A stretch of 64,000 nt of DNA. Origin: an uncultured Bacteroidales bacterium (GTDB lineage: Bacteria > Bacteroidota > Bacteroidia > Bacteroidales > Paludibacteraceae). A program made the position numbers and the translations under genes. The first letter of the stretch is position 1. Every line of letters begins with the position of its first letter. Of this stretch, positions 1,714 to 59,579 are shown one piece after another. The stretch spans positions 147 through 64,146 of the forward strand of contig CADBVL010000013.1 in assembly GCA_902798015.1 (NCBI GenBank). The letters run 5' to 3'. Below the pieces are notes generated by a model, which saw only the letters and a program-made list of their open reading frames with translations, was not told the origin of the DNA and ran no database searches.

Positions 1714-2880
1714 TTAATCGCAGGTATGGATGTATTCGACCGTATTCCCGACGGCGGCAAGGTATTGCCGGAACGCCTCTTGAGAGATAACGACCGTGCC
1801 TCTGCAGTCATTGGGATGGAAGGAAAGCGAAGGGGCTTCCTTGAGACGGCTGTCCAGAAAAAGGATGACGTGATGTTCCGTATCATTAATGAGTCCGAAA
1901 GGACTAACCGAACCGGGTTCGAGCCCCAGATAGCGCATCATCCGTTCGGGTGAAGCAAACGACAGTTTGCCGGGAGCTTTCTTGCCCTGCGAGACCAGAA
2001 TATCCTTGAGCCAGTGCTCGATATCATGAATAGCCAGATCGTCATCGCAGGGGAAACAGATAAGGTAATGCTGGTCGCCCTTATGATTGCGCATGAAGAT
2101 ATTCTTGCAATGGACAGACCCATCGTCATGCCACCATCGTTTGGCTTCTTCAATTGTTTTGCCTTCCGGGTGGTTGTAGACAGTGAAGGGGATATGATGC
2201 TCCTCCAGATAGCGCAGCACTCTCTCCTGCCGCTCGGAGATCGTCCAAAGGATGTCTTGAGGCTGGTCGATGATGCGTGTTACACCGGCTGTTGTTAAGG
2301 TTTCCCGGCTCACGAACCCCCATGAACAAGCGATGAAAGGAACGCCGGCATTGGCAGCCGTGTCGCGATCGACGAGGCTGTCGCCGAGGTATAAGGTTGA
2401 AAGTTGAGTGTTTAGGGTTGAGAGTTTAGAGATGATATCCCTGACGATTTGGGGATCGGGTTTGCGGGGAATACCTTCGCGTTCGCCGAGGATGACATCA
2501 AAGATGTCCGGGAAGAAATGCGATACAATCTTCTCCGTCGCAGCCTGGTATTTGTTGCTGGCTACGGCGAGCAGATGACCTTGCGATTTGAGTGCATGCA
2601 GCACTTCGGTTATTCCTTCGTAAGGCCGTGTGAAATCGCAGTTATGGGCATCATAATACGGCACGAAAGACTCGCGTACACGCATGATCGTTTCTTCCGT
2701 CCGCTCGGATTCGGGAAGCGCACGGCGGATGAGGTTGTTGATGCCGTTGCCTACCATCCGCGGATAATCCTCTATAGGATGCGTAGGAAACCCGCTGCGG
2801 CTCAGGGCGTGATTGCACGCATAGCCTAAGTCGTCGATGGTGTTGAGCAGCGTGCCGTCCAGGTCAAAAATAATCGTCAT
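1714..2880 (-). CDS. HAD-superfamily phosphatase (Gph-like) fused to a YbaK/ProX-type aminoacyl-tRNA deacylase domain
   Basis: An internal ATG at 2880 gives MTIIFDLDGTL (HAD motif I). Later motifs are ASNK and GDS..D. The C-terminal ~160 aa carry HCKN and GSVSPFG motifs typical of YbaK-like editing domains. The first 21 codons of the track ORF overlap the promoter. Confidence 0.7.
   Translation of the reverse strand: MTIIFDLDGTLLNTIDDLGYACNHALSRSGFPTHPIEDYPRMVGNGINNLIRRALPESERTEETIMRVRESFVPYYDAHNCDFTRPYEGITEVLHALKSQGHLLAVASNKYQAATEKIVSHFFPDIFDVILGEREGIPRKPDPQIVRDIISKLSTLNTQLSTLYLGDSLVDRDTAANAGVPFIACSWGFVSRETLTTAGVTRIIDQPQDILWTISERQERVLRYLEEHHIPFTVYNHPEGKTIEEAKRWWHDDGSVHCKNIFMRNHKGDQHYLICFPCDDDLAIHDIEHWLKDILVSQGKKAPGKLSFASPERMMRYLGLEPGSVSPFGLINDTEHHVILFLDSRLKEAPSLSFHPNDCRGTVVISQEAFRQYLAAVGNTVEYIHTCD
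2397..2431 (-). repeat. Period-7 tandem array, 5 units (minus-strand reading CTCTAAA CTCTCAA CCCTAAA CACTCAA CTTTCAA), inside the HAD CDS
   Basis: Read directly from the sequence. It is translated in frame as KLSTLNTQLSTL just before the HAD GDS motif. Confidence 0.8.
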
Positions 2881-2912
2881 ACTACAGGGCTTTTGAAAAT
2901 CGTTTTGAACCG

Positions 2913-2920
2913 CAAAAGTA
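2913..2920 (-). promoter_or_regulatory. Bacteroidetes -7 box TACTTTTG
   Basis: Matches the TAnnTTTG consensus, 33 nt upstream of ATG 2880. Confidence 0.55.
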
Positions 2921-3006
2921 CAATAAAAAAATGACATACGCAAGCCTGCGGGACATTTTTTCGGGGATTTTATGGTCAGGCTATTGCATATATCAATTTT
3001 TTTTTA

Positions 3007-3014
3007 TAATTTTG
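3007..3014 (+). promoter_or_regulatory. Bacteroidetes -7 box TAATTTTG
   Basis: Matches TAnnTTTG, 21 nt upstream of ATG 3035. Confidence 0.55.
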
Positions 3015-3034
3015 CACGCCAAATTGAAAGAAAC

Positions 3035-8066: not shown

Positions 8067-9668
8067 ATGAAAACGATTAGTAAATATGTATCTGTTCTCC
8101 TCGTAACCGCTTTGTCTTTCGCTTCTTGTAGTGAATGGATGAATGCCGTTCCCGAAGGTGGAACGAAAACACCTGACCAGGTAGAGGAAGCTGCTCAGCA
8201 GAACCCTGCAACAGCAGCAGCAGACTTGTCTGCTATCTACGCGCAGTTTATTCAGGTTTATTCCGGTCTGGGAGACCTTGGCTACGAGCGCCACAACGAC
8301 TACGGCTACGCAGCCATCTGCTTGTTCATGGATGAGCAGGGACAGGATCTTGTAAGCCCGAACACTGGATACAACTGGTTCCAATACGCCGATTTCACCT
8401 CGAACCGCGACAACACGCTGACGACCACCAAAGGTCTGATTGACCACTTGGTATGGGGTGAGTACTACAAGATCATCTTCGCATGTAACAACGTGATTGG
8501 TATGGTTGACCGCAAGCAGCCGGGTGCACAGAAATATGCGTTGAGCCAAGCTCTGGCCGTCCGCGCAATGTGCTATATGAATCTGGCTCAACTCTATCAG
8601 TTTACCTACCGCACGACGGATAAGAGTGCACTGACTGTTCCGTTGGTATTGGAAAACATGCCTGCAGAGCGCATCACCAACAACCCGCGTGCTACTCTGG
8701 AAGAGTTGTTCAAGCTTTGTACAGAGGACTTGACTTATGCATGCGACAGCCTTAATGGCTACAAGCGTCCGGACAAAGGTTTCGTAGATCAAGCCGTTGC
8801 TTTCGGTTTGCGTGCTCGTCTGAACCTTCTTAAGGGTGAGTGGGCAGATGCTGCTAAGGATGCTGATCAGGCATTGAAGTTAAGTGGCGCAGAGCCGCTG
8901 TCGATTGCTGAGGCAGGTGAACCGGGCTTCGCAGATGCAGCGCAGCACAATGTACTTTGGGCGAACATCATCGTAGAGACCAATGATGTCGTAAAGACCG
9001 GTATCGTTAACTGGCCTTCGCACATGTCGATCTTCTTCATGGATGGTTATACATCCGTAGGCGCAACCCGTTCGATTGCCAGTGAGCTCTATGACGAGAT
9101 TTCCGCTACCGACGTACGTAAGGGCTGGTGGCTGGATGAAAACCTTGAGTCTCCGCTGCTGGATGCTCCGGGTTACAACGCTGCCAAAGCAACTATCCAG
9201 GAAAATGCGGATAATGTATATACGAACGTGAAGTTCGGTACGGGCGACCGTTCTACCACCGGTGACGGTGCTGCAGCAGCAGACTGGATTCTTATGCGTG
9301 CTGAGGAGTTACACCTTATCAAAGCAGAGGGTCTCGCTCGCTCGGGCGGTGACGGCGCAAGCGTACTGCTCAACTTCGTACAGAAGTATCGTGATCCGTC
9401 CTACAACGTAGCTCAACATGGTTTGAGTCTCGAGGATGAGATCTGGTGGCAACGTCGTGTAGAGCTCTGGGGTGAAGGTTTTGCATGGGGCGATATCATG
9501 CGTCTCGAGAAACCGATTATTCGTACCAACTCGACCAACTGGCCGGAGGCATGGGCAAATCAAGACGTACCCGCAAGACACGGTGTATTGTTATGGCGTA
9601 TCCCGCAAGCCGAAATGGAGGCTAACAAGGGTATCACCGATCCTAACCCGTTTGTGCCATTCCCCTAA
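8067..9668 (+). CDS. SusD/RagB-family nutrient-binding outer-membrane lipoprotein
   Basis: Starts 20 nt after the susC end. It has a lipoprotein signal LSFASC. Size and W/Y-rich TPR-like composition are typical of SusD. Confidence 0.85.
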   Translation: MKTISKYVSVLLVTALSFASCSEWMNAVPEGGTKTPDQVEEAAQQNPATAAADLSAIYAQFIQVYSGLGDLGYERHNDYGYAAICLFMDEQGQDLVSPNTGYNWFQYADFTSNRDNTLTTTKGLIDHLVWGEYYKIIFACNNVIGMVDRKQPGAQKYALSQALAVRAMCYMNLAQLYQFTYRTTDKSALTVPLVLENMPAERITNNPRATLEELFKLCTEDLTYACDSLNGYKRPDKGFVDQAVAFGLRARLNLLKGEWADAAKDADQALKLSGAEPLSIAEAGEPGFADAAQHNVLWANIIVETNDVVKTGIVNWPSHMSIFFMDGYTSVGATRSIASELYDEISATDVRKGWWLDENLESPLLDAPGYNAAKATIQENADNVYTNVKFGTGDRSTTGDGAAAADWILMRAEELHLIKAEGLARSGGDGASVLLNFVQKYRDPSYNVAQHGLSLEDEIWWQRRVELWGEGFAWGDIMRLEKPIIRTNSTNWPEAWANQDVPARHGVLLWRIPQAEMEANKGITDPNPFVPFP

Positions 9669-14655: not shown

Positions 14656-15212
14656 GGATAAAGAACGCCTTGGAAATGCGGTTTGTACGTGATGCGCGAA
14701 CCGTAAGCGCTTCGATAATAGAGCGTGAACTCCAGATCTTTCATGACAGACGTCGTGTCTTTGACTACGATATATCCGGAATCCAGCATTTGGATAGACT
14801 GTAACTTGCCTTCCTCAACGTACAGCACATACATGCCCGTCGGTTGACCATCCCAATTCTTGCCTGGCAGGAAAGTGAAGGGCAGACCCGTACGTTCGCT
14901 ATGATATTTTCCGGCTACCAGCCGCAAAGTGTCTTTGCCGTGACTCTCCGGAACGAAGATATCGGATATATAGAGATTGTACCCCGTGCCCCGCATCCGA
15001 TGGTTCGCATCCAATTCCAGACCTTTGGAGTACAGGTCCAGTGCCACCACCGGACAAGGCACCGAGTCATAGGCATATCCGTAGATTTCCTCCCATGCCA
15101 GGATATATTCTTTCGGCAAGCCGCGATAGACGTACGGCGTGGAGGGCCGGCAGGAGGAGAATCCGAGTATACCGACCAACCCGAGTAATCCGATATAGAG
15201 CAATTTTCTCAT
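14640..15212 (-). CDS. Hypothetical lipoprotein
   Basis: Lipoprotein signal GILGFSSC. No motif recognised. Confidence 0.5.
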   Translation of the reverse strand: MRKLLYIGLLGLVGILGFSSCRPSTPYVYRGLPKEYILAWEEIYGYAYDSVPCPVVALDLYSKGLELDANHRMRGTGYNLYISDIFVPESHGKDTLRLVAGKYHSERTGLPFTFLPGKNWDGQPTGMYVLYVEEGKLQSIQMLDSGYIVVKDTTSVMKDLEFTLYYRSAYGSRITYKPHFQGVLYPWEKR

Positions 15213-45800: not shown

Positions 45801-45842
45801 AATTATCAATTATCAATTATCAATTATCAATCATCAATTATA
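45801..45842 (+). repeat. Period-7 tandem array AATTATC x4, AATCATC, AATTATA
   Basis: Read directly from the sequence. It lies 6 nt upstream of the clpC ATG and covers the last codons and stop of the 45834 gene. Confidence 0.9.
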
Positions 45843-49110: not shown

Positions 49111-49145
49111 AATTATCAATTATAAATTATCAATTATCAATTCTT
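49111..49145 (+). repeat. Period-7 tandem array AATTATC AATTATA AATTATC AATTATC AATTCTT
   Basis: Read directly from the sequence. It lies 10 nt upstream of the GH57 ATG and overlaps the GT4 stop. Confidence 0.9.
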
Positions 49146-50364: not shown

Positions 50365-52352
50365 AATTCTGCCTCCTCGCTTTCAACTTTCGACTTTAAA
50401 CTCTCAACTTCTGCCTTTTGATATCTTTTTAAGGTATCCAGCAGACTGATGACTGCCGCTACACTCGGCGCACTACTCATGCCGCCATGTCCCTTGTAGG
50501 GTGGGTTGCCGTCATAGCACTCGTTCAGCGTACCGATGGTCAGTTCGTCCATCTCAGCCTCAAAACCGATCAGCAGCCGTTCCATAAAGCTGGCGCCGCT
50601 GTACTTGTAGATGTTCATGTATGCGCGCGAATAAGCCGTGATGGTCGAGGGCCATACAACGCCGTTATGCAGACTCCTGTCGCGCTCTATCGCACCGCCG
50701 TAGCAGGTCGGACGGTAACTACCGCTCTTCGGACTCAGACTGCGCAGACCCTTCGGCGTCAGCAATTCCTTCGTGCATATATCCACTACCGCCTTCTGCT
50801 GCTTGCGGTCCAGCGGACTGTAAGGCAGACCTACCGCCCAGATCATGTTCGGGCGTACCTCGCGGTTCTGGTAGTTGTCAATCACGTAGTCATTTAGATA
50901 CAGCCCGTTCCAGAATGTCTTCACAAACGCATCCTTGCTGATCTCCGCCTGGTACTCCATCAGGTCGGCACTCGTCTCTTTGCCCATCTCGCGCAGCATC
51001 TCAGCCGTGAAGCGCATTGCGTTGTACCATAGCGCGTTGATCTCTACGACATAACCTGTACGCGGGGTGATAGGCCATCCGTTCTCCGTGGCGTTCATCC
51101 ATGTGGCGGGACGCTGTGTGCCATCCACCCATAACAAACCGTTCTGGTGCAACTTCGCACGCGGATGGTTCTGCTTGCGGTACCAGTTGATGATATCCAG
51201 ACAGAGCTGACCGTACAGGTCGGCTGCCTCGCGGACCGTATATTTATGCGCGTATTTTTGGCATGCGCGAATGAACCACAATAGCACATCCGGCTCGTCC
51301 ATTCCCGTCATCTTCAGGTCATGGATGCGGCCGTTCATGAAGTTCAGTATCTCTTCGATGGCCGTCTTGTTGATGATAGCATCCCAATATTCCGGACGGT
51401 CGATGTCCAACGTACAACTGGCGACACTGAAGAATGTGGAGCGTGCGTCGGGACCGAACCATGGGAAACCGGCTAAGAGATAACACTTGTCTCCTTCGCG
51501 TTTGTAGAACTGACTCGCGCTGTTCTTCAGCGTGGAGAACATGTCCTCGCGACGGATGCGGCGCTCCAACTCTTTCTTCCATACGGTCTTCAACTGCGCA
51601 GTCTTGCATTCCGTCACGCCGCCGGCGAAAATAACACTCTCGCCTTTCTTCATCGGCAACTCAAAATAACCCGGAACCAACAGATCCTCTTTGTAGGCAT
51701 ATCCGCGTTCGCGCTCCTTGCGGTACTCGATGTCCTTGTACCACTGCGGGTCGTGATGATACTCAACCGCCTTGCTGAACTGCATGTACAGGTTCGGGAA
51801 ACCCGGATACATGCGGTTGAAACGACCGTTCTCGCAGTCGTTCATGTCTGCGTTGGCCAGCGGGTTCTCATGCGTCAACTCATTCACGCTGCGGAACGCA
51901 AGGAACGGACGGAAACGAAGCGTCGTCGGACTACCGCTCTCCAGCAGCGTGTAGCGAATCAGCACACGCGGCTCAAAACTGACGAGCATGCGCTCCTTCT
52001 GAAGCACCATCGCACCTACACGGTAGGTCGTGCGAGAGATGACGTCGCAGTCAAACTCGCGGATGTACTTGTGCCCGTTCGGGCTGAAATGATTCTCTCC
52101 GTACTCGTGCAGACCCAGGTTGAACTCTGCTCCGTGCTGGATCACCGTCTCGTCCAGCGAACTGAGCAACACGAAGTTGTCATCGCTGATATGCGGCAAC
52201 GGCATCACCAACTGACCGTGGTACTTGCGCGTGTTGCAATCGACCAAAGTGGTCGAGTTGTACACACCGGCACGGTTGGTTCGAATCATCTCCTTCTGAA
52301 GCGAACGCTCCAGATTAACAAGTACTGTCTTGTCAAAATTAAGATAACTCAT
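50361..52352 (-). CDS. Glycogen debranching enzyme (GDE N-terminal + amylo-alpha-1,6-glucosidase domains)
   Basis: Motifs are NTRKYHGLL-like (NTRKYHGQLV), GFPWFG.D.R and NGWP. There is an ATGA overlap with the GT4 start. Confidence 0.85.
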   Translation of the reverse strand: MSYLNFDKTVLVNLERSLQKEMIRTNRAGVYNSTTLVDCNTRKYHGQLVMPLPHISDDNFVLLSSLDETVIQHGAEFNLGLHEYGENHFSPNGHKYIREFDCDVISRTTYRVGAMVLQKERMLVSFEPRVLIRYTLLESGSPTTLRFRPFLAFRSVNELTHENPLANADMNDCENGRFNRMYPGFPNLYMQFSKAVEYHHDPQWYKDIEYRKERERGYAYKEDLLVPGYFELPMKKGESVIFAGGVTECKTAQLKTVWKKELERRIRREDMFSTLKNSASQFYKREGDKCYLLAGFPWFGPDARSTFFSVASCTLDIDRPEYWDAIINKTAIEEILNFMNGRIHDLKMTGMDEPDVLLWFIRACQKYAHKYTVREAADLYGQLCLDIINWYRKQNHPRAKLHQNGLLWVDGTQRPATWMNATENGWPITPRTGYVVEINALWYNAMRFTAEMLREMGKETSADLMEYQAEISKDAFVKTFWNGLYLNDYVIDNYQNREVRPNMIWAVGLPYSPLDRKQQKAVVDICTKELLTPKGLRSLSPKSGSYRPTCYGGAIERDRSLHNGVVWPSTITAYSRAYMNIYKYSGASFMERLLIGFEAEMDELTIGTLNECYDGNPPYKGHGGMSSAPSVAAVISLLDTLKRYQKAEVESLKSKVESEEAEL
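50380..50414 (+). repeat. Period-7 tandem array CTTTCAA CTTTCGA CTTTAAA CTCTCAA CTTCTGC inside the debranching-enzyme 3' end
   Basis: Read directly from the sequence. Translated as ..KAEVESLKSKVESEEAEL at the protein C-terminus. Confidence 0.85.
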
Positions 52353-52375: not shown

Positions 52376-53539
52376 TTAGTTGTATTTGCCTTCAAACTTT
52401 GTTTGCGCGTCGGCCACGAACTGCTTGATACGCTGCTCTTCGCCTTTCTTGCAAACCAACAAAACTCCCTTCTGTTCGGCGATGATCATGTCGTTCACGC
52501 CTTGCACTACGGCTAACTTGCCCGGCTCCAGCGTCACGACATTGCCTTCCGCCTCGTAGAACAGCGCGTCTGAATGCAGACTCACGTTGTGCGCCTCGTC
52601 TTTCTCGCTCAACTCGTACAGACTGCCCCAGGTGCCTAAGTCGCTCCAGCCGAAACTCGACGGCAGTACGAATACATTGTCCGCCTTCTCCATAATGCCG
52701 TAGTCGATGGAGATGTTCGGGCATTTGGGGAAGATATGCTCGATGAACTCCTCCTCTTTGTCGGTACCCATCAGCAACTCGCCTTCACGGAAACGGTCCG
52801 CCACTTCCGGCAACAGATATCGGAATGCTTCACTGATGGTTTGCAGGTTCCAAATGAAGATACCGCTGTTCCAAAGGAAATCACCGCTCTGCAAGAACAC
52901 TTTCGCCATCTCCAGGTTCGGCTTCTCCGTAAACGTCTTCACTGGATAAATGTCTCTAAACTCTAAACTCTCAACTCTCAACTTGTCCAATGCGTTTTCA
53001 ACGAATTGGATATACCCATACCCCGTCTCCGGCCGCGTGGGTTGCATGCCGAGCGTCGCTATCGCCTTGTTCTTGCTTACAAAATCAAACGCCTTCAATA
53101 TCGTCTGACGGAATTTGTCTTCTTCCAATATCAGATGGTCGCTCGCCGCTACGACAATATTCGCCTGCATCTCCGGCCGGCTCCAGTCCTGGTTCGCGGC
53201 CGTGAGGCCCGCGCGACGCAAGCAGAGCGCGCGTATATGTGCGGTCGCGTATGCGATACAGGGCGCCGTATTTCGGCGAGCCGGCTCGCATAATATCTGC
53301 TTCTCCGACAAATCCGGAACCTGCTCCAAAATCAACTCCTTATACGCCACATTCGTGACGATAAACACATTCTCAATCGGCACAATCGGACGAAAACGAT
53401 CTACCGTCATCTGCAGCAAACTGCGACCCGTGCCGAAGAAATCCAAAAACTGTTTCGGCTTCTCTGCACGACTGTACGGCCAGAAACGGCTGCCTACACC
53501 GCCCGCCATAATGACGCAATAATTGTTGTTCTTCTTCAT
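52376..53539 (-). CDS. Mannose-1-phosphate guanylyltransferase-like nucleotidyltransferase
   Basis: ATG 53539 gives MKKNNNYCVIMAGGVGSRFWPYSR..KPKQF. Later motifs are RNTAPCIAYA and SDH.I. Confidence 0.8.
   Translation of the reverse strand: MKKNNNYCVIMAGGVGSRFWPYSRAEKPKQFLDFFGTGRSLLQMTVDRFRPIVPIENVFIVTNVAYKELILEQVPDLSEKQILCEPARRNTAPCIAYATAHIRALCLRRAGLTAANQDWSRPEMQANIVVAASDHLILEEDKFRQTILKAFDFVSKNKAIATLGMQPTRPETGYGYIQFVENALDKLRVESLEFRDIYPVKTFTEKPNLEMAKVFLQSGDFLWNSGIFIWNLQTISEAFRYLLPEVADRFREGELLMGTDKEEEFIEHIFPKCPNISIDYGIMEKADNVFVLPSSFGWSDLGTWGSLYELSEKDEAHNVSLHSDALFYEAEGNVVTLEPGKLAVVQGVNDMIIAEQKGVLLVCKKGEEQRIKQFVADAQTKFEGKYN
52954..52988 (+). repeat. Period-7 tandem array CTCTAAA CTCTAAA CTCTCAA CTCTCAA CTTGTCC inside the nucleotidyltransferase CDS
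   Basis: Read directly from the sequence. Translated as DKLRVESLEFRD. Confidence 0.85.
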
Positions 53540-53580
53540 AAATATAACGTGTGTTTTTAATGGTAATCCCAAAAATCGTG

Positions 53581-53588
53581 CAAATATA
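53581..53588 (-). promoter_or_regulatory. Bacteroidetes -7 box TATATTTG
   Basis: TAnnTTTG, 42 nt upstream of ATG 53539. Confidence 0.5.
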
Positions 53589-53665
53589 CAACAATAATTT
53601 TATATATGCAAGCGCGCGCGTGCTTTTTCTATGAAAAAGTGCTTTTTTGACGAAAAAATAAACTT

Positions 53666-53700
53666 CTTTCAACTTTCAACTTTCAACTTTCAACTTTATT
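53666..53700 (+). repeat. Period-7 tandem array CTTTCAA x4 + CTTTATT
   Basis: Read directly from the sequence, in the divergent intergenic region immediately 5' of the gldD -7 box. Confidence 0.9.
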
Positions 53701-53703: not shown

Positions 53704-53711
53704 TACCTTTG
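53704..53711 (+). promoter_or_regulatory. Bacteroidetes -7 box TACCTTTG for gldD
   Basis: TAnnTTTG, 20 nt upstream of ATG 53731. Confidence 0.55.
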
Positions 53712-53730: not shown

Positions 53731-54339
53731 ATGGACTTTAGGCAAAAAATATTACCTCTTTTGTGGCTGGTCATGGCGATGGTTTCCTGCGGACGGGCGA
53801 CTGCGCCGAAACCGTATGGTTATTACCGTATCACGGTGCCCGACACCGCATATATGCCGTTTGAGGACTATCCTCTTTCAACTTTCAACCTTCAACTTTC
53901 AACTTACCCATATACTTTCGCTCTCTCGCAAAATGCGGTGGTGCAGCCCCGCACGGACGTGGAAGAACCCTATTGGATCAACCTCTATTATCCGGCGCTG
54001 GACGCTACCATCCATTGCTCCTATAAACCCGTTCGGAACAACCTGCGCGAACTGACCAACGATGCGCTCGAGTTCGTGTACCGCAACGCCTCTTTCGCGA
54101 ACGCTATCCCCGAACGCGAATATTCTCATCCCGAGGCGCAGGTGTACGGCGTGCTCTTCGACCTGGAGGGAAACACCGCTTCGTCCTGCCAGTTCTTTGT
54201 GACCGACTCCGTGAACCATTTCTTCCGCGCATCGGTCTATTGCAACTGCCCGCCGAATGCCGACTCCCTTGCACCCGTATATGAGTACCTCCGCAAAGAT
54301 GTCATCAAAATGGTAGAGACGTTTAACTGGGAAGAATAA
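53731..54339 (+). CDS. gldD: Gliding-motility/T9SS-associated lipoprotein GldD
   Basis: Lipoprotein signal MAMVSC. Motifs are PKPYGYYRI, CSYKPV..NL..L..D and QFFVTDS..HFFRASVY...PNADSL.PV. Confidence 0.65.
   Translation: MDFRQKILPLLWLVMAMVSCGRATAPKPYGYYRITVPDTAYMPFEDYPLSTFNLQLSTYPYTFALSQNAVVQPRTDVEEPYWINLYYPALDATIHCSYKPVRNNLRELTNDALEFVYRNASFANAIPEREYSHPEAQVYGVLFDLEGNTASSCQFFVTDSVNHFFRASVYCNCPPNADSLAPVYEYLRKDVIKMVETFNWEE
53875..53909 (+). repeat. Period-7 tandem array CTTTCAA CTTTCAA CCTTCAA CTTTCAA CTTACCC inside gldD
   Basis: Read directly from the sequence. Translated as PLSTFNLQLSTYP. Confidence 0.9.
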
Positions 54340-54344: not shown

Positions 54345-55532
54345 ATGTTTTTTTCTTTTAAAAATAGAAGTTTGGCCATTTTGTTGGACCCGGAGAAAGC
54401 GGACCTGTCGCGCCTTTCTTTTACCGAAGAGTGCCATCCCGACTATATCTTCGTCGGCGGTTCTACCGGTGGTGACACGACGCCTTTCGTCCGAGCCCTC
54501 AAAGAGAAGATAAAACTCTCCTGCCCTTCAGGGGAGGATGGGAGAGAGCTGCCCATCATTCTTTTTCCCGGAAATTCGTCCCAGTTTACCCCCGAAGCAG
54601 ATGGTATTTTGTTCCTCTCTCTGCTCTCCGGTCGTAACCCGGAATTTCTTGTGGATCAGCAAGTTAAGGCGGCGCGTGCTATCCGCGAGTCGCAGATAAA
54701 TTTCGTCCCAACGGCATATGTCCTCATTGACGGCGGAGTGGTCACTTCTACGATGCGTGTTTCTCATACCCAACCGCTCGATCCGGCGGACATAGACACT
54801 ATCGTGGACACCTGTATCGCGGCCGAACTGATGGGTAAGAAAGCCATCTACCTGGAGGCGGGCAGCGGAGCGAAGACTCCTGTCTCGGCAGACATCATTC
54901 GGGCGGTTCGCGCGAAGACTTCCGTTACTCTCATCGTCGGCGGAGGAATACGGACGCAGGAAGCAATGCAGGCCGCATACAATGCCGGAGCTGATGTGGT
55001 GGTCATCGGCAACTATTTCGAGACTCATCCCGAGGCACTGAAAGACTTTTGCCGTAATACAGGGGTGACGTCATTATGTAATAACGACAGTGCCTCGTTG
55101 CATGAAGACGAGCGTTTCATGCGCATCGCTCTCTGCGAAGCAGAGAAAGCTCTGGCAGCAGACGAGATTCCAATCGGTTGCGTCATCGTCAGCCGGAACC
55201 AGATCATCGGACGCGGACATAACCTCACGGAGACCCTTGCTGACGTCACCGCGCACGCAGAGATACAGGCCATCACCGCCGCCTCGCAGACGCTCGGTGG
55301 CAAGTACCTTCCGGACACCACACTTTATGTCACTGTGGAACCCTGTCCCATGTGCGCAGGCGCTATCGGATGGGCGCAGGTAAACCGTATCGTGTACGGC
55401 GCACCCGATCCCAAACGGGGATACTCCGTCTATGCGCCACGCACCTTCCACCCCAAAGCAACCGTCACGGCAGGGGTGCTCGAAGCGGAATGCCGTGAAC
55501 TCATACAAGCATTTTTTAAGAACAAACGATAA
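54345..55532 (+). CDS. Fusion ORF: geranylgeranylglyceryl-phosphate-synthase-like (PcrB/GGGPS) domain + tRNA adenosine(34) deaminase TadA domain
   Basis: The N-terminal ~245 aa carry a TIM-barrel GGGPS pattern (FVGGS, ILFPG, YLEAGSGA, VGGGIR). The C-terminal ~150 aa carry HAEIQAI and PCPMCAGA deaminase zinc motifs. Confidence 0.7.
   Translation: MFFSFKNRSLAILLDPEKADLSRLSFTEECHPDYIFVGGSTGGDTTPFVRALKEKIKLSCPSGEDGRELPIILFPGNSSQFTPEADGILFLSLLSGRNPEFLVDQQVKAARAIRESQINFVPTAYVLIDGGVVTSTMRVSHTQPLDPADIDTIVDTCIAAELMGKKAIYLEAGSGAKTPVSADIIRAVRAKTSVTLIVGGGIRTQEAMQAAYNAGADVVVIGNYFETHPEALKDFCRNTGVTSLCNNDSASLHEDERFMRIALCEAEKALAADEIPIGCVIVSRNQIIGRGHNLTETLADVTAHAEIQAITAASQTLGGKYLPDTTLYVTVEPCPMCAGAIGWAQVNRIVYGAPDPKRGYSVYAPRTFHPKATVTAGVLEAECRELIQAFFKNKR
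54528..54546 (-). repeat. Degenerate hairpin-element remnant in frame in the GGGPS domain
   Basis: CTCCTGCCCTTCAGGGGAGGATGGGAGAG resembles the hairpin core. Translated as LSCPSGEDGRE just before the conserved ILFPG. Confidence 0.45.
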
Positions 55533-57433
55533 TGAATTTCTCCAATCTCCAATCTAAAATCACAAATTTCAAATATGCGCAGACGATCTTTCGGCTGAGC
55601 ATATTTGTGGTATTGGCGGCGGTCATCGTATTGATGTTTCCGCGGTACAACAACTCTTTCCGGTATCATTACGAGATAGGCAAACCATGGGGGTACTCAA
55701 CGCTCACCGCGGATTTTGACTTCCCTATCTATAAGACGGACGAGCAACTGGAGAAAGACCAGAAGCAACTGCTGTCCACCTTCGCGCCTTTCTTTAAATA
55801 TATCCCGCGCGTGCAGCGCGATGTGAAAGTGGTGTCGCTCGAGACGATGGAATGGCTGCAGGCGGAGGGCTATACGCGCATCGATATCCAGCAGCATAAA
55901 TATCCGCTGTCCGAAGTGTACACGCCGATGACTGCGCATAAGAAATTCGGTTATGACTGTGCTACCAACCTCGTGCTGGACACCGCGAAAACGGAGGAGT
56001 TCCGGACCAAACTCCTGGCGACCGTTTCGCCTACCCAGGGAATGGTGCAGAAAGGGGAGAAAATTATCGACAACGGCGATCTCGTCACCGAGCGTAACTA
56101 TCAGATATTGCAGTCGTTGCGTCGCGCCTACGACGATGAGTCACTGGGAAACAAACAGCGTACGCTCTCTATCCTCGGCGAGTCGATGTTGGTGTGCCTG
56201 TTTCTGCTGTTGTTTGTCATCTATCTCTATGTCTTCCGCATCACCTACCTGCGTGCGATACCAACGGTACTCTTCTTCTGTCTGCAGATGTTTATCGTCA
56301 TCGGCCTGGCCTGCCTCGCCTTGCGGTTCAACCTCACAGTGTATCTCATCCCGTTCGCATGGGTGCCTATCCTGACGCGTGTCTTCTTTGATTCCCGCAC
56401 CGCGCTCTTCCTGCACTTCACGACCATCCTCATCACGTCGATTGTCGTGCCTGCACCGGTGGAGTTCTTCTTCATCCAGATTGTTGTGGGCATGGTAGCG
56501 GTGTCCTCCTTGAGTGATATGACGCGCCGCGCACAACTCGTGCAAACGGCAGCATGGATTTTCCTCGCCCAGGTGATGGCTTACACGGCGATATCGTTTG
56601 CCCAGACAGGTGCGTTCTCGGCGATCGATCTATGGATGTATATCTATTTCTTCATCTGCGCACTCCTTACCGTCGGCTGTTACGGACTGATATATATGTT
56701 CGAGAAGATGTTCCACTTTATCTCGTCCATCACCCTCGTCGAACTGACGGATATCAATTCCGAACTGCTGCATACCCTTGCGGAGCGTGCACCGGGAACC
56801 TTCCAGCACTCGATGCAAGTGTCCAATCTCGCTGCGGAAGCCGCCAAGACTATCGGCGCGAATGCGCTGCTCGTGCGAACAGGCGCTCTCTATCATGACA
56901 TCGGAAAGATGACCGACCCGCTCTACTATGTAGAGAACCAGAACGGAGTCGATAACCCGCTGTTGCAGATGGACCCGCGTGACGCGGCGCAAGTAGTCAT
57001 CGCGCATGTAGCCGAAGGAGAGAAGATTGCCCGCAAAAACCACCTGCCCGAAGTGGTGGTCAATTTTATCACCACCCACCACGGAACATCCCTCGTGCGC
57101 TATTTCTATAACACCTATTGCAACGCCCATCCCAAAGAGAAAGTGGATGAGTCGCTCTTCCGCTATCCGGGAGCTAAACCCAGTACGAAAGAAGGGGCTA
57201 TCCTGATGATGGCGGACGCTATAGAAGCGCGCTCGCGCAGCCTCGATGACTTCTCCGAGGCATCCGTGACCAAAGCGGTCAATCAGATGATTGACAGTCA
57301 GATAGCGGACGGTCAGTTTGCGGAGACACCGCTCAGCTTCAAGGATGTAGAAGACATCCGCCGGGTCTTCGTCGCACGCATCACCGCCATGAACCATCAT
57401 CGCATCTCGTATCCGACCTTGAACCAAAAATAG
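55532..57433 (+). CDS. 7TM-receptor HD-domain phosphohydrolase (PgpH/YqfF-like)
   Basis: Extracellular 7TMR-HDED region, 7 TM helices and an HD domain (H....LYHDIGK..). There is a 1-nt overlap with the preceding stop. Confidence 0.8.
   Translation: MNFSNLQSKITNFKYAQTIFRLSIFVVLAAVIVLMFPRYNNSFRYHYEIGKPWGYSTLTADFDFPIYKTDEQLEKDQKQLLSTFAPFFKYIPRVQRDVKVVSLETMEWLQAEGYTRIDIQQHKYPLSEVYTPMTAHKKFGYDCATNLVLDTAKTEEFRTKLLATVSPTQGMVQKGEKIIDNGDLVTERNYQILQSLRRAYDDESLGNKQRTLSILGESMLVCLFLLLFVIYLYVFRITYLRAIPTVLFFCLQMFIVIGLACLALRFNLTVYLIPFAWVPILTRVFFDSRTALFLHFTTILITSIVVPAPVEFFFIQIVVGMVAVSSLSDMTRRAQLVQTAAWIFLAQVMAYTAISFAQTGAFSAIDLWMYIYFFICALLTVGCYGLIYMFEKMFHFISSITLVELTDINSELLHTLAERAPGTFQHSMQVSNLAAEAAKTIGANALLVRTGALYHDIGKMTDPLYYVENQNGVDNPLLQMDPRDAAQVVIAHVAEGEKIARKNHLPEVVVNFITTHHGTSLVRYFYNTYCNAHPKEKVDESLFRYPGAKPSTKEGAILMMADAIEARSRSLDDFSEASVTKAVNQMIDSQIADGQFAETPLSFKDVEDIRRVFVARITAMNHHRISYPTLNQK
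55540..55574 (+). repeat. Period-7 tandem array CTCCAAT CTCCAAT CTAAAAT CACAAAT TTCAAAT in codons 3-15 of the HD-domain gene
   Basis: Read directly from the sequence. Translated as FSNLQSKITNFKY. Confidence 0.8.
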
Positions 57434-57469
57434 TTCGTCATTACATAATCCCGTAATCCCGAAAAAAAA

Positions 57470-57504
57470 TAATTTTTAATTTTTAATTCTTAATTTTTAA
57501 TTGA
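57470..57504 (+). repeat. Period-7 tandem array TAATTTT TAATTTT TAATTCT TAATTTT TAATTGA
   Basis: Read directly from the sequence. The first 28 nt are identical to 58563..58590. The last unit supplies the TAA stop and TTG start context of dusB. Confidence 0.9.
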
Positions 57505-58565
57505 ACAACTTTCCTCTATATCTTGCCCCGATGGAGGACGTCACCGATCCGGCCTTCCGTGCGTTGTGCAAACGCTACGGAGCCGATCGTGTCTATACCG
57601 AATTCGTCAATGCCGACGCACTCGTACGCGACATCGCTTCCACGACGCGCAAACTCACCATCCATGATGCCGAGCGGCCGGTGGCAATCCAGATCTACGG
57701 GCGTGACCCCGAGTCGATGGCAGGCGCCGCGCGTATCGTCGAGCAGGCACATCCTGACTTCATCGACATCAATTTCGGCTGTCCCGTGAAGAAAGTGGCA
57801 GGCAAAGGTGCCGGAGCGGGACTGCTGCGTGATGTGCCGAAGATGCTGGATATCACCCGCGCTGTCGTCAATGCCGTCCATACACCCGTTACTGTCAAGA
57901 CCCGCCTCGGATGGGATGATAAGGACCTCATTCCCAGAGTAAATCCGCTGGGCCTCAATACTCCCTTCCCTTTAGGGGAGGGGCGGGGTGAGGCTTCTTT
58001 CTTCATCGTTGATCTCGCGGAAGCCTTGCAGGACTGCGGCATCGCCGAACTCGCCATTCACGGCCGTACACGTTCGCAGATGTACCGCGGCGAAGCGGAT
58101 TGGACACTCATCGGTGAGGTGAAGAACAACCCGCGCATGCGCATACCTGTCATAGGGAACGGGGACGTATGCACACCCGAGCGCGTAAAAGAGTGCTTCG
58201 ACCGCTACGGTGTGGATGCCGTCATGGTTGGTCGCGCTACCTTCGGCGCACCCTGGCTCTTCGCAGAGATGAAGAATTATCTGAATCCTATCACCCCTCC
58301 TTTCAGGGAGGGGACGGGGGTAGGCTTCCCTCGCACTATGTCCGACAAAGTCGCCGTGCTCAAAGAACACGTCCTTGCTTCCATACAGTGGTGCGGCAAT
58401 GACGAGCGCAAAGGAATCGTACATTCGCGGCGCCATTTTGCGGCTTCGCCTGTCTTCAAAGGACTCGATAACTTCAAGCAGACACGCATCGCCCTTCTCC
58501 GCGCGGAAACAGTAGATGAGGTCTTCACTATCATGGACGAGATAGTAGAAAAATGGGGCGATTAA
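57501..58565 (+). CDS. dusB: tRNA-dihydrouridine synthase (DusB-like), TTG start
   Basis: Motifs are LAPMEDVTDPAFR, INFGCPV.KV, VKTRLGW, HGRT and GNGD. An in-frame TAA lies immediately upstream, so TTG 57501 is the only start that keeps the conserved N-terminus. Confidence 0.85.
   Translation: MNNFPLYLAPMEDVTDPAFRALCKRYGADRVYTEFVNADALVRDIASTTRKLTIHDAERPVAIQIYGRDPESMAGAARIVEQAHPDFIDINFGCPVKKVAGKGAGAGLLRDVPKMLDITRAVVNAVHTPVTVKTRLGWDDKDLIPRVNPLGLNTPFPLGEGRGEASFFIVDLAEALQDCGIAELAIHGRTRSQMYRGEADWTLIGEVKNNPRMRIPVIGNGDVCTPERVKECFDRYGVDAVMVGRATFGAPWLFAEMKNYLNPITPPFREGTGVGFPRTMSDKVAVLKEHVLASIQWCGNDERKGIVHSRRHFAASPVFKGLDNFKQTRIALLRAETVDEVFTIMDEIVEKWGD
57961..57994 (-). repeat. GC-rich hairpin element, in frame in dusB
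   Basis: Sequence CTCCCTTCCCTTTAGGGGAGGGGCGGGGTGAGGC. Translated as TPFPLGEGRGEA. Confidence 0.85.
58292..58325 (-). repeat. GC-rich hairpin element, in frame in dusB
   Basis: Sequence CACCCCTCCTTTCAGGGAGGGGACGGGGGTAGGC. Translated as TPPFREGTGVG. Confidence 0.85.
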
Positions 58566-58597
58566 TTTTTAATTTTTAATTCTTAATTTTGAATTTT
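58563..58597 (+). repeat. Period-7 tandem array TAATTTT TAATTTT TAATTCT TAATTTT GAATTTT
   Basis: Read directly from the sequence. The first unit is the dusB stop codon and the last unit contains the TTG start of the next ORF. Confidence 0.9.
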
Positions 58598-59579
58598 GAA
58601 ACGCTTCTTCGACAGTAACGCCCTCTGGCTCTCGATGCTCATCGGTGCGCTCGGCTATAAACTCTTCCTTCCCCTCGCACCCATACTCCCGTGGCTGATT
58701 TTCTTCATGCTCTTTTTTACCTTCTGTAAAATCAATCCGCTGGATCTTCGTCTACATAAATGGCATTGGGTCGTTTTGGCAGTGCAGCTCCTTTTCTCCT
58801 TCGCCTCCTATGCGGGATTGATGTATTTTACGGGTGACAAGGTGCTCGCGCAGGGGATACTCATGTGTTTTATCATGCCTACCGCTACGGCGGCACCCAT
58901 CATAGCGGGAAAAATGGGAGGTTCCATACAGAATCTGACCACCTTTACTTTGCTTTCCAATTTCGCTACGGCCATCATTGTTCCGGCTACTTTCCCGCTC
59001 ATCAACCCCGCAGCGAACATGACTTTCTTTCCCGCTTTCCTGCTAATCCTTTCCCGCGTTGCCCCGCTCTTGTTAGGTCCCTTCTTCTCAGCCTGGCTCC
59101 TCCGGATAGCGTATCAGAGATGGACAAAAAAGGAGTTTGTATTATCTCGGGCGGCGGCGCAGATTCCTTTCTATCTCTGGGTGGCATCGATCGTTGTCCT
59201 CTCAGCCGTCGTAACGAATACAACCATACTCAATTTCCAATCTCAAATCGCCAATATACTAATTTTATTAGTATTATCTTTCTTCGCTTGCCTGCTGCAG
59301 TTCGGACTTGGCAAACTCATCGGCTATTATCTGCCGGCGCCGAGCAAGGGACGTGATTACCAGGATGTACTCATCAATCCTGCTGCGGCTCCTAAAACGA
59401 TGGAGGGCGTCTCTTCCATCACTGCCGGACAAGCGTTTGGACAGAAAAACACCTCACTTGGTGTGTGGATGGCGAATACCTATTTGGACCCGATGGCTTC
59501 ACTCGGAGCGGCGGCATATATTATTTGGCAGAATGTCTTTAATTCTGTTCAACTTTTCGTGGCGGCGCATAAAAAATAA
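58596..59579 (+). CDS. Bile acid:Na+ symporter (SBF/BASS)-like transporter
   Basis: About 9-10 TM helices and an FGQKNTSLGVWMA motif. The start is uncertain (TTG 58596 or ATG 58635). Confidence 0.6.
   Translation: MKRFFDSNALWLSMLIGALGYKLFLPLAPILPWLIFFMLFFTFCKINPLDLRLHKWHWVVLAVQLLFSFASYAGLMYFTGDKVLAQGILMCFIMPTATAAPIIAGKMGGSIQNLTTFTLLSNFATAIIVPATFPLINPAANMTFFPAFLLILSRVAPLLLGPFFSAWLLRIAYQRWTKKEFVLSRAAAQIPFYLWVASIVVLSAVVTNTTILNFQSQIANILILLVLSFFACLLQFGLGKLIGYYLPAPSKGRDYQDVLINPAAAPKTMEGVSSITAGQAFGQKNTSLGVWMANTYLDPMASLGAAAYIIWQNVFNSVQLFVAAHKK

Follow-up and report, generated by a model that had tools for sequence, protein, structure and literature searches.

The window analysed here, a 64,000-nt stretch of contig CADBVL010000013.1 from a rumen Paludibacteraceae (Bacteroidales) organism, carries 16–17 tandem arrays with a 7-nt period plus one decayed array, as detected with Tandem Repeats Finder and a scan of our own. 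The arrays were confirmed as a real observation. We consider it probable that they are heptanucleotide SSRs of the 'long SSR' class, which would be made by slippage, filtered by selection and abundant in the rumen Paludibacteraceae clade. Judging from their sequences, they belong to a class already described (Mrazek's long SSRs, the STRR and, above all, MacGregor's TAACTGA repeats). They are a dense example of this known repeat class, filling gaps between genes and lying in frame in some protein loops.

Excess of the 7-nt period and relatedness of the units

Tandem Repeats Finder placed period-7 starts at 15685, 19008, 20338, 21741, 24126, 41763, 45801, 49111, 49355, 50380, 52954, 53666, 53875, 55539, 57470 and 58562, and called 2403–2429 as period 14, which corresponds to two 7-nt sub-units. 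These calls matched the array coordinates and unit sequences of an earlier sequence-only reading of the window. Its range of 3–6 units did not hold throughout, as only 2.4–2.9 units are present at 24126, 41763, 55539 and 49355. Nor is the period 'strict', as had been claimed, with unit matches spanning 75% to 100%.

The excess of period 7 was evident when the window was subjected to an X-drop scan. At a matched score threshold, 11 arrays were obtained for period 7 and none for each of the other periods from 4 to 15, while a third-order Markov null yielded 0 arrays in 30 simulations. With a lower threshold, 14–15 period-7 arrays were found versus 0–1 at periods 5–11 (null mean 0.15–0.25). Relatives of the organism resembled the window in this respect, at a density of about one array per 3.7 kb. 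In 0.91 Mb of related loci, 127 period-7 arrays were counted versus at most 26 for any other period, and a second region from 11 strains contained 46 versus at most 12. The arrays are also present in an independent assembly, L001, which is 99.92% identical to the window without gaps and in which the arrays at 19008, 20338, 21738 and 24126 are unaltered. The array lengths did not decay smoothly but showed a sharp peak at 30–33 nt (4.3–4.7 units).

The sequence-only reading had regarded the unit sequences as different. There are many units, but they are related: 29% of the distinct units lie within one mismatch of CTTTCAA, versus 3.7% expected, so that they form a cluster around CTTTCAA/TTNTCAA well beyond the expectation from composition. 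CTTTCAA arrays are present in many phyla, and (CTTTCAA)n was found in Chamaesiphon and Moorena too. In addition, the relatives contain a 16-nt repeat of which one unit occurs at six or more separate sites.

Arrays at gene junctions and in leaders

Between 41 and 46% of the arrays are located in intergenic DNA, which makes up 5.8% of the bases. At junctions, arrays begin at a median of −1 nt relative to the upstream stop, and a median of 12.5 nt separates their end from the start that follows. On the minus strand, the array at 19008–19045 (sense TAAGTTTAATG(TTGAAAG)4) occupies the entire 38-nt gap between PGK and DUF3127, beginning at the PGK stop and leaving 2 nt in front of the DUF3127 ATG. 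The array at 20338–20365 (minus; sense TGAAATTGAAGGTTGAAAGTTGAAAGTT) begins with the TGA that terminates the DUF6242 gene, and 43 nt separate its end from the PGK start. Between the D-Ala-D-Ala ligase and polyprenyl synthase genes, the array at 24126–24143 (minus; sense AAAGTTGAAAGTTGAAAG) connects the TAA stop of the former with the start of the latter. Likewise, 5.9 units of TTGATAA/TTGATGA at 45801–45841 (minus) begin at the TAA stop of the porin gene and leave 6 nt in front of the ClpC-like ATG, and 4.6 units of AATTGAT at 49111–49142 (minus) lie between the GT4 glycosyltransferase stop and the GH57 start, ending 10 nt short of the ATG. In the plus-strand TAATTTT spacer array at 57470–57502, near which the 8-nt repeat TAATCCCG occurs twice (57446–57461), the final unit contains the TTG (57501) that serves as the start codon of a Dus-family gene, the dusB of the sequence-only reading. 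The TTAATTT/TTGAATT array at 58562–58600 (plus), which includes TAATTTTG at 58584, connects the dusB TAA stop (58563–58565) with the TTG (58596) at which the downstream membrane-protein gene begins.

Three further plus-strand arrays occupy other non-coding contexts. An ACATTAC array at 21738–21772 lies in the 5′ leader of MTHFS, abutting the ATG at 21771; a TACCTTTG −7-type box is located at 21710–21717. Downstream of the array at 53666–53697, (CTTTCAA)4.6, and 6 nt from its end, there is a conserved TACCTTTG −7-type box (53704–53711), with the gldD ATG located 27 nt downstream of the box. About 20 relatives have this layout upstream of gldD, most of them sharing both the unit and the 32-nt length. 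Lastly, 2.4 units of TCTGACA at 41763–41779 lie between a MobC-like ORF fragment, which terminates 2 nt before them, and a terminator-like hairpin, which follows directly.

Arrays within reading frames

The arrays had been described as lying mostly at gene boundaries. However, five or six arrays, namely those at 2397, 15685, 52954, 53875, 59231 and 55539, are in frame within ORFs. Overall, about one-third of the arrays in the window are in frame within ORFs, at loops. The array at 2397–2430 (minus) lies in the HAD-phosphatase domain of a fused HAD+YbaK ORF (1714–2937, minus), where its stop-free sense strand, TCTAAACTCTCAACCCTAAACACTCAACTTTCAA, encodes SKLSTLNTQLST; in the alignment with PDB 2hi0 this segment replaces the native loop, adding just two residues. 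In the FtsX-like permease ORF (15209–16441), sense CAGAAAG units at 15685–15716 (minus) are in frame between the MacB_PCD and FtsX domains. The region flanking this array had the same length, 41 nt, in each of the 10 related strains in which it was located, showing that the array is constant in length.

Stops are avoided as well. The array at 52954–52983 (minus; sense AGTTGAG/AGTTTAG units), a ∼10-residue insertion relative to PDB 2x5s, is in frame in a mannose-1-P guanylyltransferase-like ORF (NTP-transferase), and it carries a TGA to TTA/TAG change at the position of an otherwise in-frame stop. At the same site, L124, L128, L137 and L141 have GTTGAAA-type arrays, each with one TGA-to-TTA unit at the would-be in-frame stop. 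Furthermore, ORF-internal (CTTTCAA)n arrays from diverse genomes were in the stop-free orientation in 30 cases and in the opposite orientation in none.

Within gldD, a CTTTCAA array at 53875–53905 (plus) contributes LSTFNLQLST to the loop that separates PDTAYxxF from YPYTF; in relatives this loop either lacks the insert or contains arrays with other units. The 7TM-HD protein ORF, of which the ATG at 55532 overlaps the TadA stop, carries 2.4 units of TCTCCAA at 55539–55555 (plus), 7 nt into the ORF, and AAATCTC or CTTTCAA arrays are present at this N-terminal site in relatives. The decayed array at 59225–59270 (plus) lies in a membrane-protein (transporter) ORF. The sequence-only reading had noted it as degenerate at 59231, and it proved genuine, with relatives having intact CAATTAC arrays at the orthologous site, crisp in L141, L142 and L148. 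Close to a gene end, the array at 50380–50410 (minus; sense AAGTTGAGAGTTTAAAGTCGAAAGTTGAAAG) supplies the final codons of the glycogen-debranching ORF and is followed after 15 nt by the GT4 ATG; these two genes overlap at ATGA. A weak GACTGAT run of 2.9 units within the GT4 ORF (49355–49374, minus; Tandem Repeats Finder score 33, own score 9) is near chance level and probably lies outside the phenomenon.

Strain variation, origin and precedents

The sequence-only reading had proposed a comparison of unit numbers between strains, and whole-unit differences between spacers were found at 95–96% identity. The PGK–DUF3127 spacer measures 20/21, 27/28 or 41 nt (2, 3 or 5.4 units) in such strains, which also show ±7 nt differences at two further sites. 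One unit distinguishes strains at the 20338 site, and in strains with 95% identity the MTHFS leader has either one unit fewer or an (ATCAATT)4 array instead. The spacer between the D-Ala-D-Ala ligase and polyprenyl synthase genes is 29 nt long in the window and 45 nt in some strains, while in others it is swapped for an unrelated spacer of 127–132 nt. At 99.92% identity, no length changes were detected between the arrays of L001 and the window. Relatives lacking arrays at the same loci, for which a search had also been suggested, were found as well, and they retain in single copy the seed that the arrays repeat: TAATTGA, or an AAATGA start/stop overlap. Together with the whole-unit spacer differences, these seeds lend good support to the proposal that the arrays are footprints of slippage in a 7-nt register.

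The units themselves change in concert. Most relatives with the porin–ClpC-like junction carry an array with a 7-nt period there, but with different units, and orthologous arrays are near-perfect within species and 1–2 bases per unit apart between species. In a PcrB loop, for example, the units by species are AAATCTC, AAATTTC, AAATGTC, AATTGTC and AATCTTC, and between L142 and L148 all four units of one array differ. The finding of different units at one site in different species points to concerted evolution.

In the slippage reading, slipped-strand mispairing during replication would create, resize and homogenise the arrays by one 7-nt unit per step, starting at short local seeds, often a heptamer holding the stop codon of a gene. 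Loops of 7 nt would presumably be too large for correction by mismatch repair. Selection would then determine which arrays survive. In a co-directional spacer, a TGA- or TAA-containing unit could close all three reading frames, while the AT-rich, weakly folding tract could serve as the leader of the next gene. Bacteroidetes lack Shine-Dalgarno-led initiation, and the present organism presumably does so too. Further permitted places would be 5′ leaders and positions upstream of promoters. In tolerant protein loops, in-frame arrays would persist only in a stop-free orientation or after a stop-removing point change, and length changes would be permitted only as three units. What the sequences show directly is the period-7 excess, the placement, the unit-step polymorphism, the concerted change of units and, within ORFs, constant length and stop avoidance; we infer slippage as the mechanism, evasion of mismatch repair and any advantage in translation. 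None of this accounts for the register of 7. Several findings argue against simple slippage: the sharp length peak, the clustering of units around CTTTCAA, the same arrays in many phyla, the replacement of an array by one with unrelated units at two sites at just 5% divergence, the near-exact (CTTTCAA)4.5 upstream of gldD across many species, and the same-unit 16-nt repeat at no fewer than six separate sites in relatives. These suggest that sequence-specific selection or copying between loci is added to local slippage.

As to selection, it is plausible from the sequences that the arrays act as Shine-Dalgarno-free leaders closing all three frames. A stronger version, which we regard as rather doubtful, holds that the spacer arrays are kept for function as modular junction cassettes, providing a three-frame stop for the upstream ORF and an unstructured, A/U-rich, AUG-free leader for (re-)initiation that ignores Shine-Dalgarno sequences, with slippage merely as the source of variation. 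The arrays reach exactly from stop to start, most relatives occupy the same junctions despite unit turnover, and most of these starts have an A at −3 as read from the sequence. This agrees with reports that initiation in Bacteroidetes is tuned by structure and A-3 and that AUG is depleted near start codons (PMC6847099), and MacGregor suggested the same role for the TAACTGA repeats (PMC4679880). Initiation regions were predicted to fold weakly (−3.7 vs −7.3 kcal/mol), but this difference is wholly attributable to GC content. Among clade junction arrays, stops are confined to the sense strand in 15 cases and to the antisense strand in 3; however, orthology between many of the arrays means that these counts lack independence, and diverse genomes showed no orientation bias (49 vs 47). 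Moreover, copy number ranges from 2 to 5.4 at one junction between close strains, some relatives have short array-less spacers or ATGA overlaps at these junctions, others have ATG-rich arrays (AAATGAC units), and one-third of the arrays lie in ORFs or upstream of a promoter. The earlier idea of unstructured initiation spacers agrees with the stop-to-start span, AT-richness and weak folding of the spacer arrays, but the folding gap vanishes after accounting for GC, and the ORF-internal arrays, the promoter-upstream gldD array and the post-stop array at 41763 are left unaccounted for.

The TTNTCAA-centred unit family, the length peak near 32 nt and the exact (CTTTCAA)4.5 of constant 32 nt placed 6 nt upstream of the conserved gldD −7 box in many species could instead reflect one nucleic-acid-binding protein with ∼7 nt per subunit, be it RNA-bound (of cold-shock or S1 type) or DNA-bound (a transcription factor or nucleoid protein), with the array-adjacent genes as its regulon. 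Csp, S1 and CsrA were named as candidates by MacGregor (PMC4679880), and a preprint describes TTTTGAT heptads upstream of ctxAB that recruit regulators (bioRxiv 10.1101/2021.05.14.444153). Such a protein seems unlikely, as units at the same site vary between species and even strains, arrays occur in both orientations relative to genes, the flanking genes share no theme (glycolysis, glycogen metabolism, tRNA modification, gliding motility) and no candidate protein was identified. Templated spread in place of local origin, by ectopic conversion between arrays or by some enzyme, would explain why the same few units recur at many sites per genome and across phyla, why an array can give way to another whose unit also occurs elsewhere in that genome (AATTATC in the MTHFS leader of strains L205–L212), the complete four-unit switch between L142 and L148, and the 16-nt unit at six or more sites, which is far too long for chance recurrence. 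We nevertheless judge it quite unlikely: empty sites hold single-copy seeds, lengths shift in 7-nt steps, replacements are also explicable by homologous recombination with diverged alleles, and neither target-site duplications nor terminal repeats nor linked enzyme genes were observed. Unit-number differences between strains would also be expected of contingency loci that switch genes on and off by phase variation, but this is disfavoured as highly improbable, with no variation at 99.92% identity, ORF-internal arrays always in frame and constant in length, and flanked genes that are housekeeping rather than surface or restriction genes.

The STRR of heterocystous cyanobacteria are tandem 7-nt units (CCCCAGT, TTGGTCA, CAACAGT), with one unit dispersed over many loci. 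They resemble the present arrays in both respects, but they occur in another phylum with other units, whereas AT-richness and an association with stop and start codons mark the arrays described here. Rickettsia palindromic elements, which are 100–150 bp long and presumably mobile, reside in frame within protein genes. They illustrate the tolerance of short repetitive DNA in surface loops of conserved proteins, but they are palindromes and not tandem heptamers.

The sequence-only reading named the STRR as the sole bacterial precedent it knew, and that they are the sole one is contradicted by the heptanucleotide SSRs of Mrazek et al. (2007) and by MacGregor (2015; PMC4679880). TAACTGA repeats occur in marine Beggiatoaceae, some cyanobacteria and five Bacteroidetes, including Paludibacter (PMC4679880), which shares its family with the present organism. 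As here, they form sets of 2–6 tandem 7-nt units, mainly intergenic and a few nt from start codons at which Shine-Dalgarno sequences are seldom found; in forward orientation they place stops in three frames and overlap the upstream stop, and within ORFs they are in reverse orientation (PMC4679880). The units here are instead TTGAAAG/CTTTCAA and kin, with many related units per genome, whereas in BOGUAY neighbours of TAACTGA are rarely repeated (PMC4679880). The ORF-internal arrays here are not confined to protein ends but occupy loops of conserved enzyme domains, and the strain series adds unit-step polymorphism and concerted unit change. As related in PMC4679880 and PMC4692102, Mrazek et al. 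(2007) found heptanucleotides to be the commonest class of long SSRs in prokaryotes, with units of 5–11 nt. According to the account in PMC4679880, these SSRs share with the present arrays a sporadic taxonomy, a chiefly non-coding location and proposed polymerase slippage. In these accounts the survey highlighted Burkholderia, Xanthomonas, actinobacteria and cyanobacteria, with rumen Paludibacteraceae not among the taxa sampled, and the stop/start anchoring and in-frame coding arrays are given here in greater detail. In Vibrio cholerae, TTTTGAT heptads in strain-dependent number directly precede the ctxAB promoter. They form a single locus governed by ToxR, ToxT and H-NS, whereas the present arrays are genome-wide and in many contexts, but they resemble the 53666 array in being AT-rich and, like that array with respect to the gldD −7 box, upstream of a promoter.

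Period-7 arrays in the window and in related contigs

Tandem Repeats Finder placed period-7 arrays at 15685, 19008, 20338, 21741, 24126, 41763, 45801, 49111, 49355, 50380, 52954, 53666, 53875, 55539, 57470 and 58562, the one at 49355 being marginal, and scored a further array at 2403-2429 as period 14. This output agreed with the coordinates and unit sequences of an earlier sequence-only reading, which had described arrays of three to six units with a strict 7-nt period, mostly at gene boundaries. The register of seven was confirmed, but unit-to-unit identity ranged from 75 to 100%, several arrays comprised only 2.4–2.9 units, and the boundary placement applied to most arrays but not to about a third. 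When the window was scanned with mismatches tolerated at periods 4 to 15, all 11 arrays detected had period 7; 30 third-order Markov simulations yielded no arrays. At a lower threshold, 14–15 arrays were found at period 7 and 0–1 at other periods, with a null mean of 0.15–0.25. Taking long simple sequence repeats (SSRs) as tandem units of 5–11 nt in excess of chance, the window thus holds 11–15 such period-7 arrays against a null of 0–0.25. The sequence-only reading would have been abandoned had the arrays been missing from an independent assembly. L001, an independent rumen-metagenome scaffold that aligns gap-free across 7.5 kb of the window at 99.92% identity, contained four of the window arrays unchanged. 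Because period 7 exceeded the null and these four arrays recurred in L001, the arrays are neither chance nor an assembly artefact.

Relatives were drawn from rumen and gut metagenomes. One set consisted of ∼28 contigs encoding a fused PcrB-TadA protein (63–78% amino-acid identity), the equivalent of window positions 44–64 kb, and the other of 11 contigs with 95–96% nucleotide identity covering 8–31 kb. PGK proteins 97–99% identical to the window PGK were assigned in NCBI metagenome-assembled genomes to organisms named Paludibacteraceae bacterium. Among contigs with the identical PGK, the longest measured 64,581 nt, and the window thus covers almost all of it. Over 0.91 Mb, comprising the first set and more distant contigs, we counted 127 arrays at period 7, 26 at period 8, 23 at period 11, two at period 6 and at most 11 at any other period; distant contigs that matched the TadA domain only were mostly array-free. 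In the second set, 46 arrays had period 7 and no other period exceeded 12. The comparison of period 7 with its neighbouring periods, as proposed in the earlier reading, therefore came out far in favour of period 7 in the window and in its relatives. The window and its close relatives (395 kb) together contained 108 arrays, about one per 3.7 kb, and 41–46% of arrays fell in intergenic DNA, which makes up 5.8% of the bases. CTTTCAA-type arrays numbered eight in the 64 kb and were dispersed over many loci.

Placement of the arrays relative to genes

Gene content around the arrays was checked with Pfam. At 19008, 24126, 45801 and 49111, the array occupied the whole gap between two co-directional genes, its first unit holding the upstream TAA or TGA and its end lying 0–10 nt before the next start. 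The array at 20338 started at the upstream stop and ended 43 nt before the PGK start, and a 5′ leader array at 21738 abutted the ATG. Array units also supplied the signals themselves: the last unit at 57470 provides a TTG start codon, and at 58562 the first unit provides a TAA stop and the last unit a TTG start. Across the clade, the median distance was −1 nt from the upstream stop to the array and 12.5 nt from the array to the next start. Where only one strand of the unit carried a stop codon, it was the sense strand in 15 arrays and the antisense strand in three. This stop-to-start placement, together with the weaker folding of initiation regions with an array (−3.7 vs −7.3 kcal/mol), is compatible with the earlier suggestion that the arrays act as unstructured initiation spacers. 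The folding difference was, however, not significant once GC content had been corrected for, and RNA unstructuredness beyond AT-richness was rejected. An Rfam search of the window returned one tRNA and no other known RNA family.

The array at 53666-53697 lies in a divergent intergenic region, with 6 nt between its end and a conserved TACCTTTG box that precedes the gldD ATG by 27 nt. The box matches the Bacteroidetes −7 consensus TAnnTTTG, and a gldD promoter is predicted on this basis. The layout upstream of gldD was common to ∼20 relatives, most of which had the CTTTCAA unit and the 32-nt length. A block located 5′ of this array (53560-53660) was also conserved in ∼20 relatives; in it, GCAAGCGCGCGCG precedes a hairpin-like repeat rich in A/T, GAAAAAGTGCTTTTTT, that Tandem Repeats Finder reported as a period-19 repeat at 53620-53657. 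This block may belong to the divergent promoter region.

Five or six window arrays lie in frame inside open reading frames. The segment SKLSTLNTQLST, encoded by the array at 2397, replaces a loop of a HAD phosphatase and adds two residues relative to PDB 2hi0, and the array at 52954 corresponds to an insertion of ∼10 residues in a mannose-1-P guanylyltransferase-like enzyme relative to PDB 2x5s. Others were found in an FtsX permease (15685), in the GldD loop between PDTAYxxF and YPYTF (53875), at the N-terminus of an HD protein (55539) and, in decayed form, in a membrane protein (59231). An insertion size in clean multiples of 21 nt was looked for in these arrays and not found: insertions in the GldD loop ranged from 5 to 13 residues, and the HAD loop was longer by only 2. 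The HAD phosphatase is itself part of a fused reading frame (1714-2937) that also encodes a YbaK-type aminoacyl-tRNA editing domain.

Since the TTGAAAG unit contains TGA, three units close every reading frame; the CTTTCAA orientation is open in all frames. Among the matches listed for at least 120 (CTTTCAA)3 loci in other genomes, 30 ORF-internal arrays had the open orientation and none the closed one. The exception is the guanylyltransferase array at 52954, which has the closed orientation. In four related contigs (L124, L128, L137 and L141), exactly one unit of this array reads AGTTTAA instead of AGTTGAA, at the place where TGA would be in frame, and the window array, with AGTTGAG and AGTTTAG units, is altered at the same stop-avoiding position.

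Read on the plus strand, all but one of the window arrays run C>G. A rule tied to the direction of the chromosome or of replication was nevertheless rejected, as the GC3 skew flips sign near 37 kb but array orientation does not, orientation did not follow the local GC skew across 113 loci of other genomes, and orientation agreement within loci was at chance (139 concordant vs 130 discordant pairs). Gene-relative rules explain the orientation: spacer arrays carry sense-strand stops and ORF arrays are stop-free. In other genomes, inverted pairs of heptamer arrays 30–400 nt apart were frequent, for example (TTGAAAG)n followed by (CTTTCAA)n, or ATTGCGA followed by CAATTCG. Such pairs were seen in the contigs L025, L031, L043, L051, L053, L055, L058, L080, L088, L092 and L121, and may flank divergent or convergent gene pairs.

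Variation among strains and species

At the 99.92% identity of L001 no array had changed. At 95–96% identity, the spacer between PGK and DUF3127 contained 2, 3 or 5.4 TTGAAAG units (20/21, 27/28 or 41 nt), and the array between DUF6242 and PGK differed by one unit among strains. Among close strains, the spacer between Ddl and the polyprenyl synthase gene measured 29 nt or 45 nt, or was replaced by an unrelated repeat-rich spacer of 127–132 nt, and the MTHFS leader carried (ACATTAC)4.6, a version shortened to 3.6 units, or (ATCAATT)4 in its place. The comparison of unit numbers across strains that the sequence-only reading had called for thus revealed several lengths at one junction and steps of ±1 elsewhere, and such polymorphism between strains is a signature of slippage that is shared with long SSRs. 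The FtsX array (15685) had a constant length in 10 strains, whereas the spacer arrays of the same contigs varied. Phase-variable contingency repeats are not indicated for this set, with the ORF arrays in frame and length-constant and four arrays unchanged in the closest assembly. Two PGK homologues, P0001 (555 aa) and P0002 (586 aa), were considered as PGK fusions through an array and rejected; both contain an internal duplication of PGK sequence drawn from two strain variants, and they therefore look like chimeric metagenome assemblies.

Of the eight arrays compared between the contigs L142 and L148 (97.65% identity), six were identical, and in one the four units had all switched from AATTCTC to AATTATC without a change in length. 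The same two contigs also differed by a 16-nt indel that corresponds to two 8-nt units. Period-8 arrays (TAATCCCG, AAATGCGA/AAATGAGA) and ATG-rich heptamers (AAATGAC) adjoin or replace heptamer arrays at window position 57446-57461, at L142:14500-14600 and in the spacer between dusB and the transporter gene of L139, L140 and L144.

Between species, most relatives had 7-nt arrays at the same junctions, with different units. Some relatives were array-free at these loci, a situation that the earlier reading had suggested looking for, and retained a single seed: TAATTGA after the porin stop or, where dusB meets the next gene, the overlapping start and stop AAATGA. In the PcrB loop, each of at least 10 species had a nearly perfect array that was one base per unit apart from the others (AAATCTC, AAATTTC, AAATGTC, AATTGTC and AATCTTC). 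One base change must therefore have reached every copy, altering three amino acids together. The arrays thus evolve in concert, and the driving force acts on the DNA. In the window, the fused reading frame (54345-55532) encodes a PcrB-family domain and a TadA-like deaminase, a fusion conserved in ∼28 relatives, and its PcrB loop (54513-54551) is encoded by a GC-rich inverted repeat, CTCTCCTGCCCTTCAGGGGAGGATGGGAGAGAG, where relatives hold heptamer arrays. This repeat is in frame, encodes KLSCPSGEDGREL and has a predicted hairpin of −16.8 kcal/mol.

Origin of the arrays and relation to known repeats

Knowledge of bacterial heptamer repeats dates back to the work on cyanobacterial STRR sequences. 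With these, the window arrays share tandem heptamers and the dispersal of one unit over many loci, but the host belongs to the Paludibacteraceae and is not a heterocystous cyanobacterium, and the units differ from STRR1-3; the literature searched offered nothing mechanistic on STRR. The TTTTGAT heptads of ctxAB are a further analogue, and the 53666-53697 array would resemble them in lying directly 5′ of a core promoter, here one predicted from the consensus. According to the summary in PMC4679880, Mrazek 2007 identified heptanucleotides as the commonest class of long SSR and proposed slippage as the cause; Rehm 2015 likewise remarks on the heptamer excess. The arrays described here share with this class the tandem copies, the predominance of period 7, the enrichment in non-coding DNA and the polymorphism in unit number. 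TAACTGA repeats were reported by MacGregor 2015 (PMC4679880) from Beggiatoaceae, from cyanobacteria and from five Bacteroidetes including Paludibacter, in sets of 2–6 units just upstream of start codons, with three-frame stops overlapping the upstream stop in the forward orientation and the reverse orientation inside ORFs. All these properties are shared, with stops in all frames, overlap with the upstream stop and the next start close downstream at junctions, and, inside ORFs, the stop-free orientation alone, apart from 52954 with its stop-removing changes. The unit itself is different, as the window has TTGAAAG, TTGATAA, TAATTTT, ACATTAC and others.

The best fit is that the arrays are heptanucleotide SSRs which slippage generates and keeps uniform and on which selection then acts as a filter, a reading that we regard as somewhat probable. 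Slippage in a 7-nt register, already put forward in the sequence-only reading, is the reading that best accommodates the unit-step differences between strains. A functional overlay in translation initiation is plausible and would be consistent with Bacteroidetes initiation, which depends on structure and A-3 and makes no use of Shine-Dalgarno sequences (PMC6847099), but as the primary explanation function is opposed by a unit number that is too variable and contexts that are too diverse.

Several features are not obviously consequences of simple local slippage. Array length peaked at 30–33 nt, and distinct units clustered around CTTTCAA, with 29% at one mismatch or fewer (3.7% expected) and 69% at two or fewer (27% expected). 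Furthermore, (CTTTCAA)3 occurred in at least 120 genome loci, mostly in Bacteroidales and also in Chamaesiphon, Moorena, Acidobacteriota, Ignavibacteria and Patescibacteria, and further heptamer arrays abounded in the loci listed (272 at period 7 vs 32 at period 8). For ORF arrays, as opposed to spacers, a toggle of ±3 units could give rise to 1.5-unit seeds, a 4.5-unit mode and complete homogenisation. Recognition by a dedicated binding protein and copying from locus to locus are, both taken together, unlikely. On another reading, likewise unlikely, the arrays are no passive microsatellites but cis-elements maintained as a family (TTNTCAA and its complement) with a defined size of ∼32 nt or 4.5 units. 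These would be recognised by a protein reading 7 nt per subunit or be copied from a template between loci, and in Bacteroidales that initiate without Shine-Dalgarno pairing they would form modular cassettes for stop-and-restart or upstream of promoters. If so, the CTTTCAA arrays of cyanobacteria, Acidobacteriota and Patescibacteria would reflect a shared mechanism, and the long-standing puzzle of heptamer preference in prokaryotic long SSRs would be solved.

The finding is a dense, well-sampled case of a known repeat class and no new category. It adds a multi-unit family around TTNTCAA, a strain-level series of unit-number steps, arrays in loops of conserved enzyme domains with stop-avoiding substitutions, and unit turnover at orthologous sites. 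The Paludibacteraceae clade is unusually dense in arrays and richly sampled, rumen metagenomes providing hundreds of related contigs, and the whole cycle is visible in it, from stop-codon seed through stepwise expansion and unit homogenisation to array replacement, including in-frame entry into enzyme loops with stop-avoiding changes. It is a good natural system for measuring slippage rates and permits testing whether arrays help translation re-initiation in bacteria without Shine-Dalgarno pairing. The arrays also create low-complexity peptide inserts and ambiguous starts, such as the two TTG starts derived from array units, which gene callers will mis-handle.

Several relatives carry a second dispersed tandem family with a unit of ∼16 nt, GGTCTTACAGCGNAGC, which is absent from the window and often ends in a small GC hairpin. 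It was located at L124:7769-7830, 13098-13143, 13982-14025 and 14987-15045, at L137:8641-8700 and 9217-9260, at L142:10178-10222 and elsewhere. At least six separate sites were distinguished, in frame in the GldD signal peptide, the PcrB loop, the PcrB-TadA linker, dusB and the transporter, and also at the junction between the HD gene and dusB. Independent origins at all of these sites are not possible for a unit of 16 nt, so that some copying between loci is implied for this family. GC-rich hairpin inserts similar to that in the window PcrB loop (CCCCACCCC...GGGAGGGAG) were present in the spacer between GT4 and GH57 of L142 and L133. Finally, at window positions 41581-41830 and 42948-43022, a MobC-like ORF fragment precedes a short array of heptamers, a strong terminator hairpin and tRNA-Arg(TCT); this region may be what is left of a site where a mobile element integrated.
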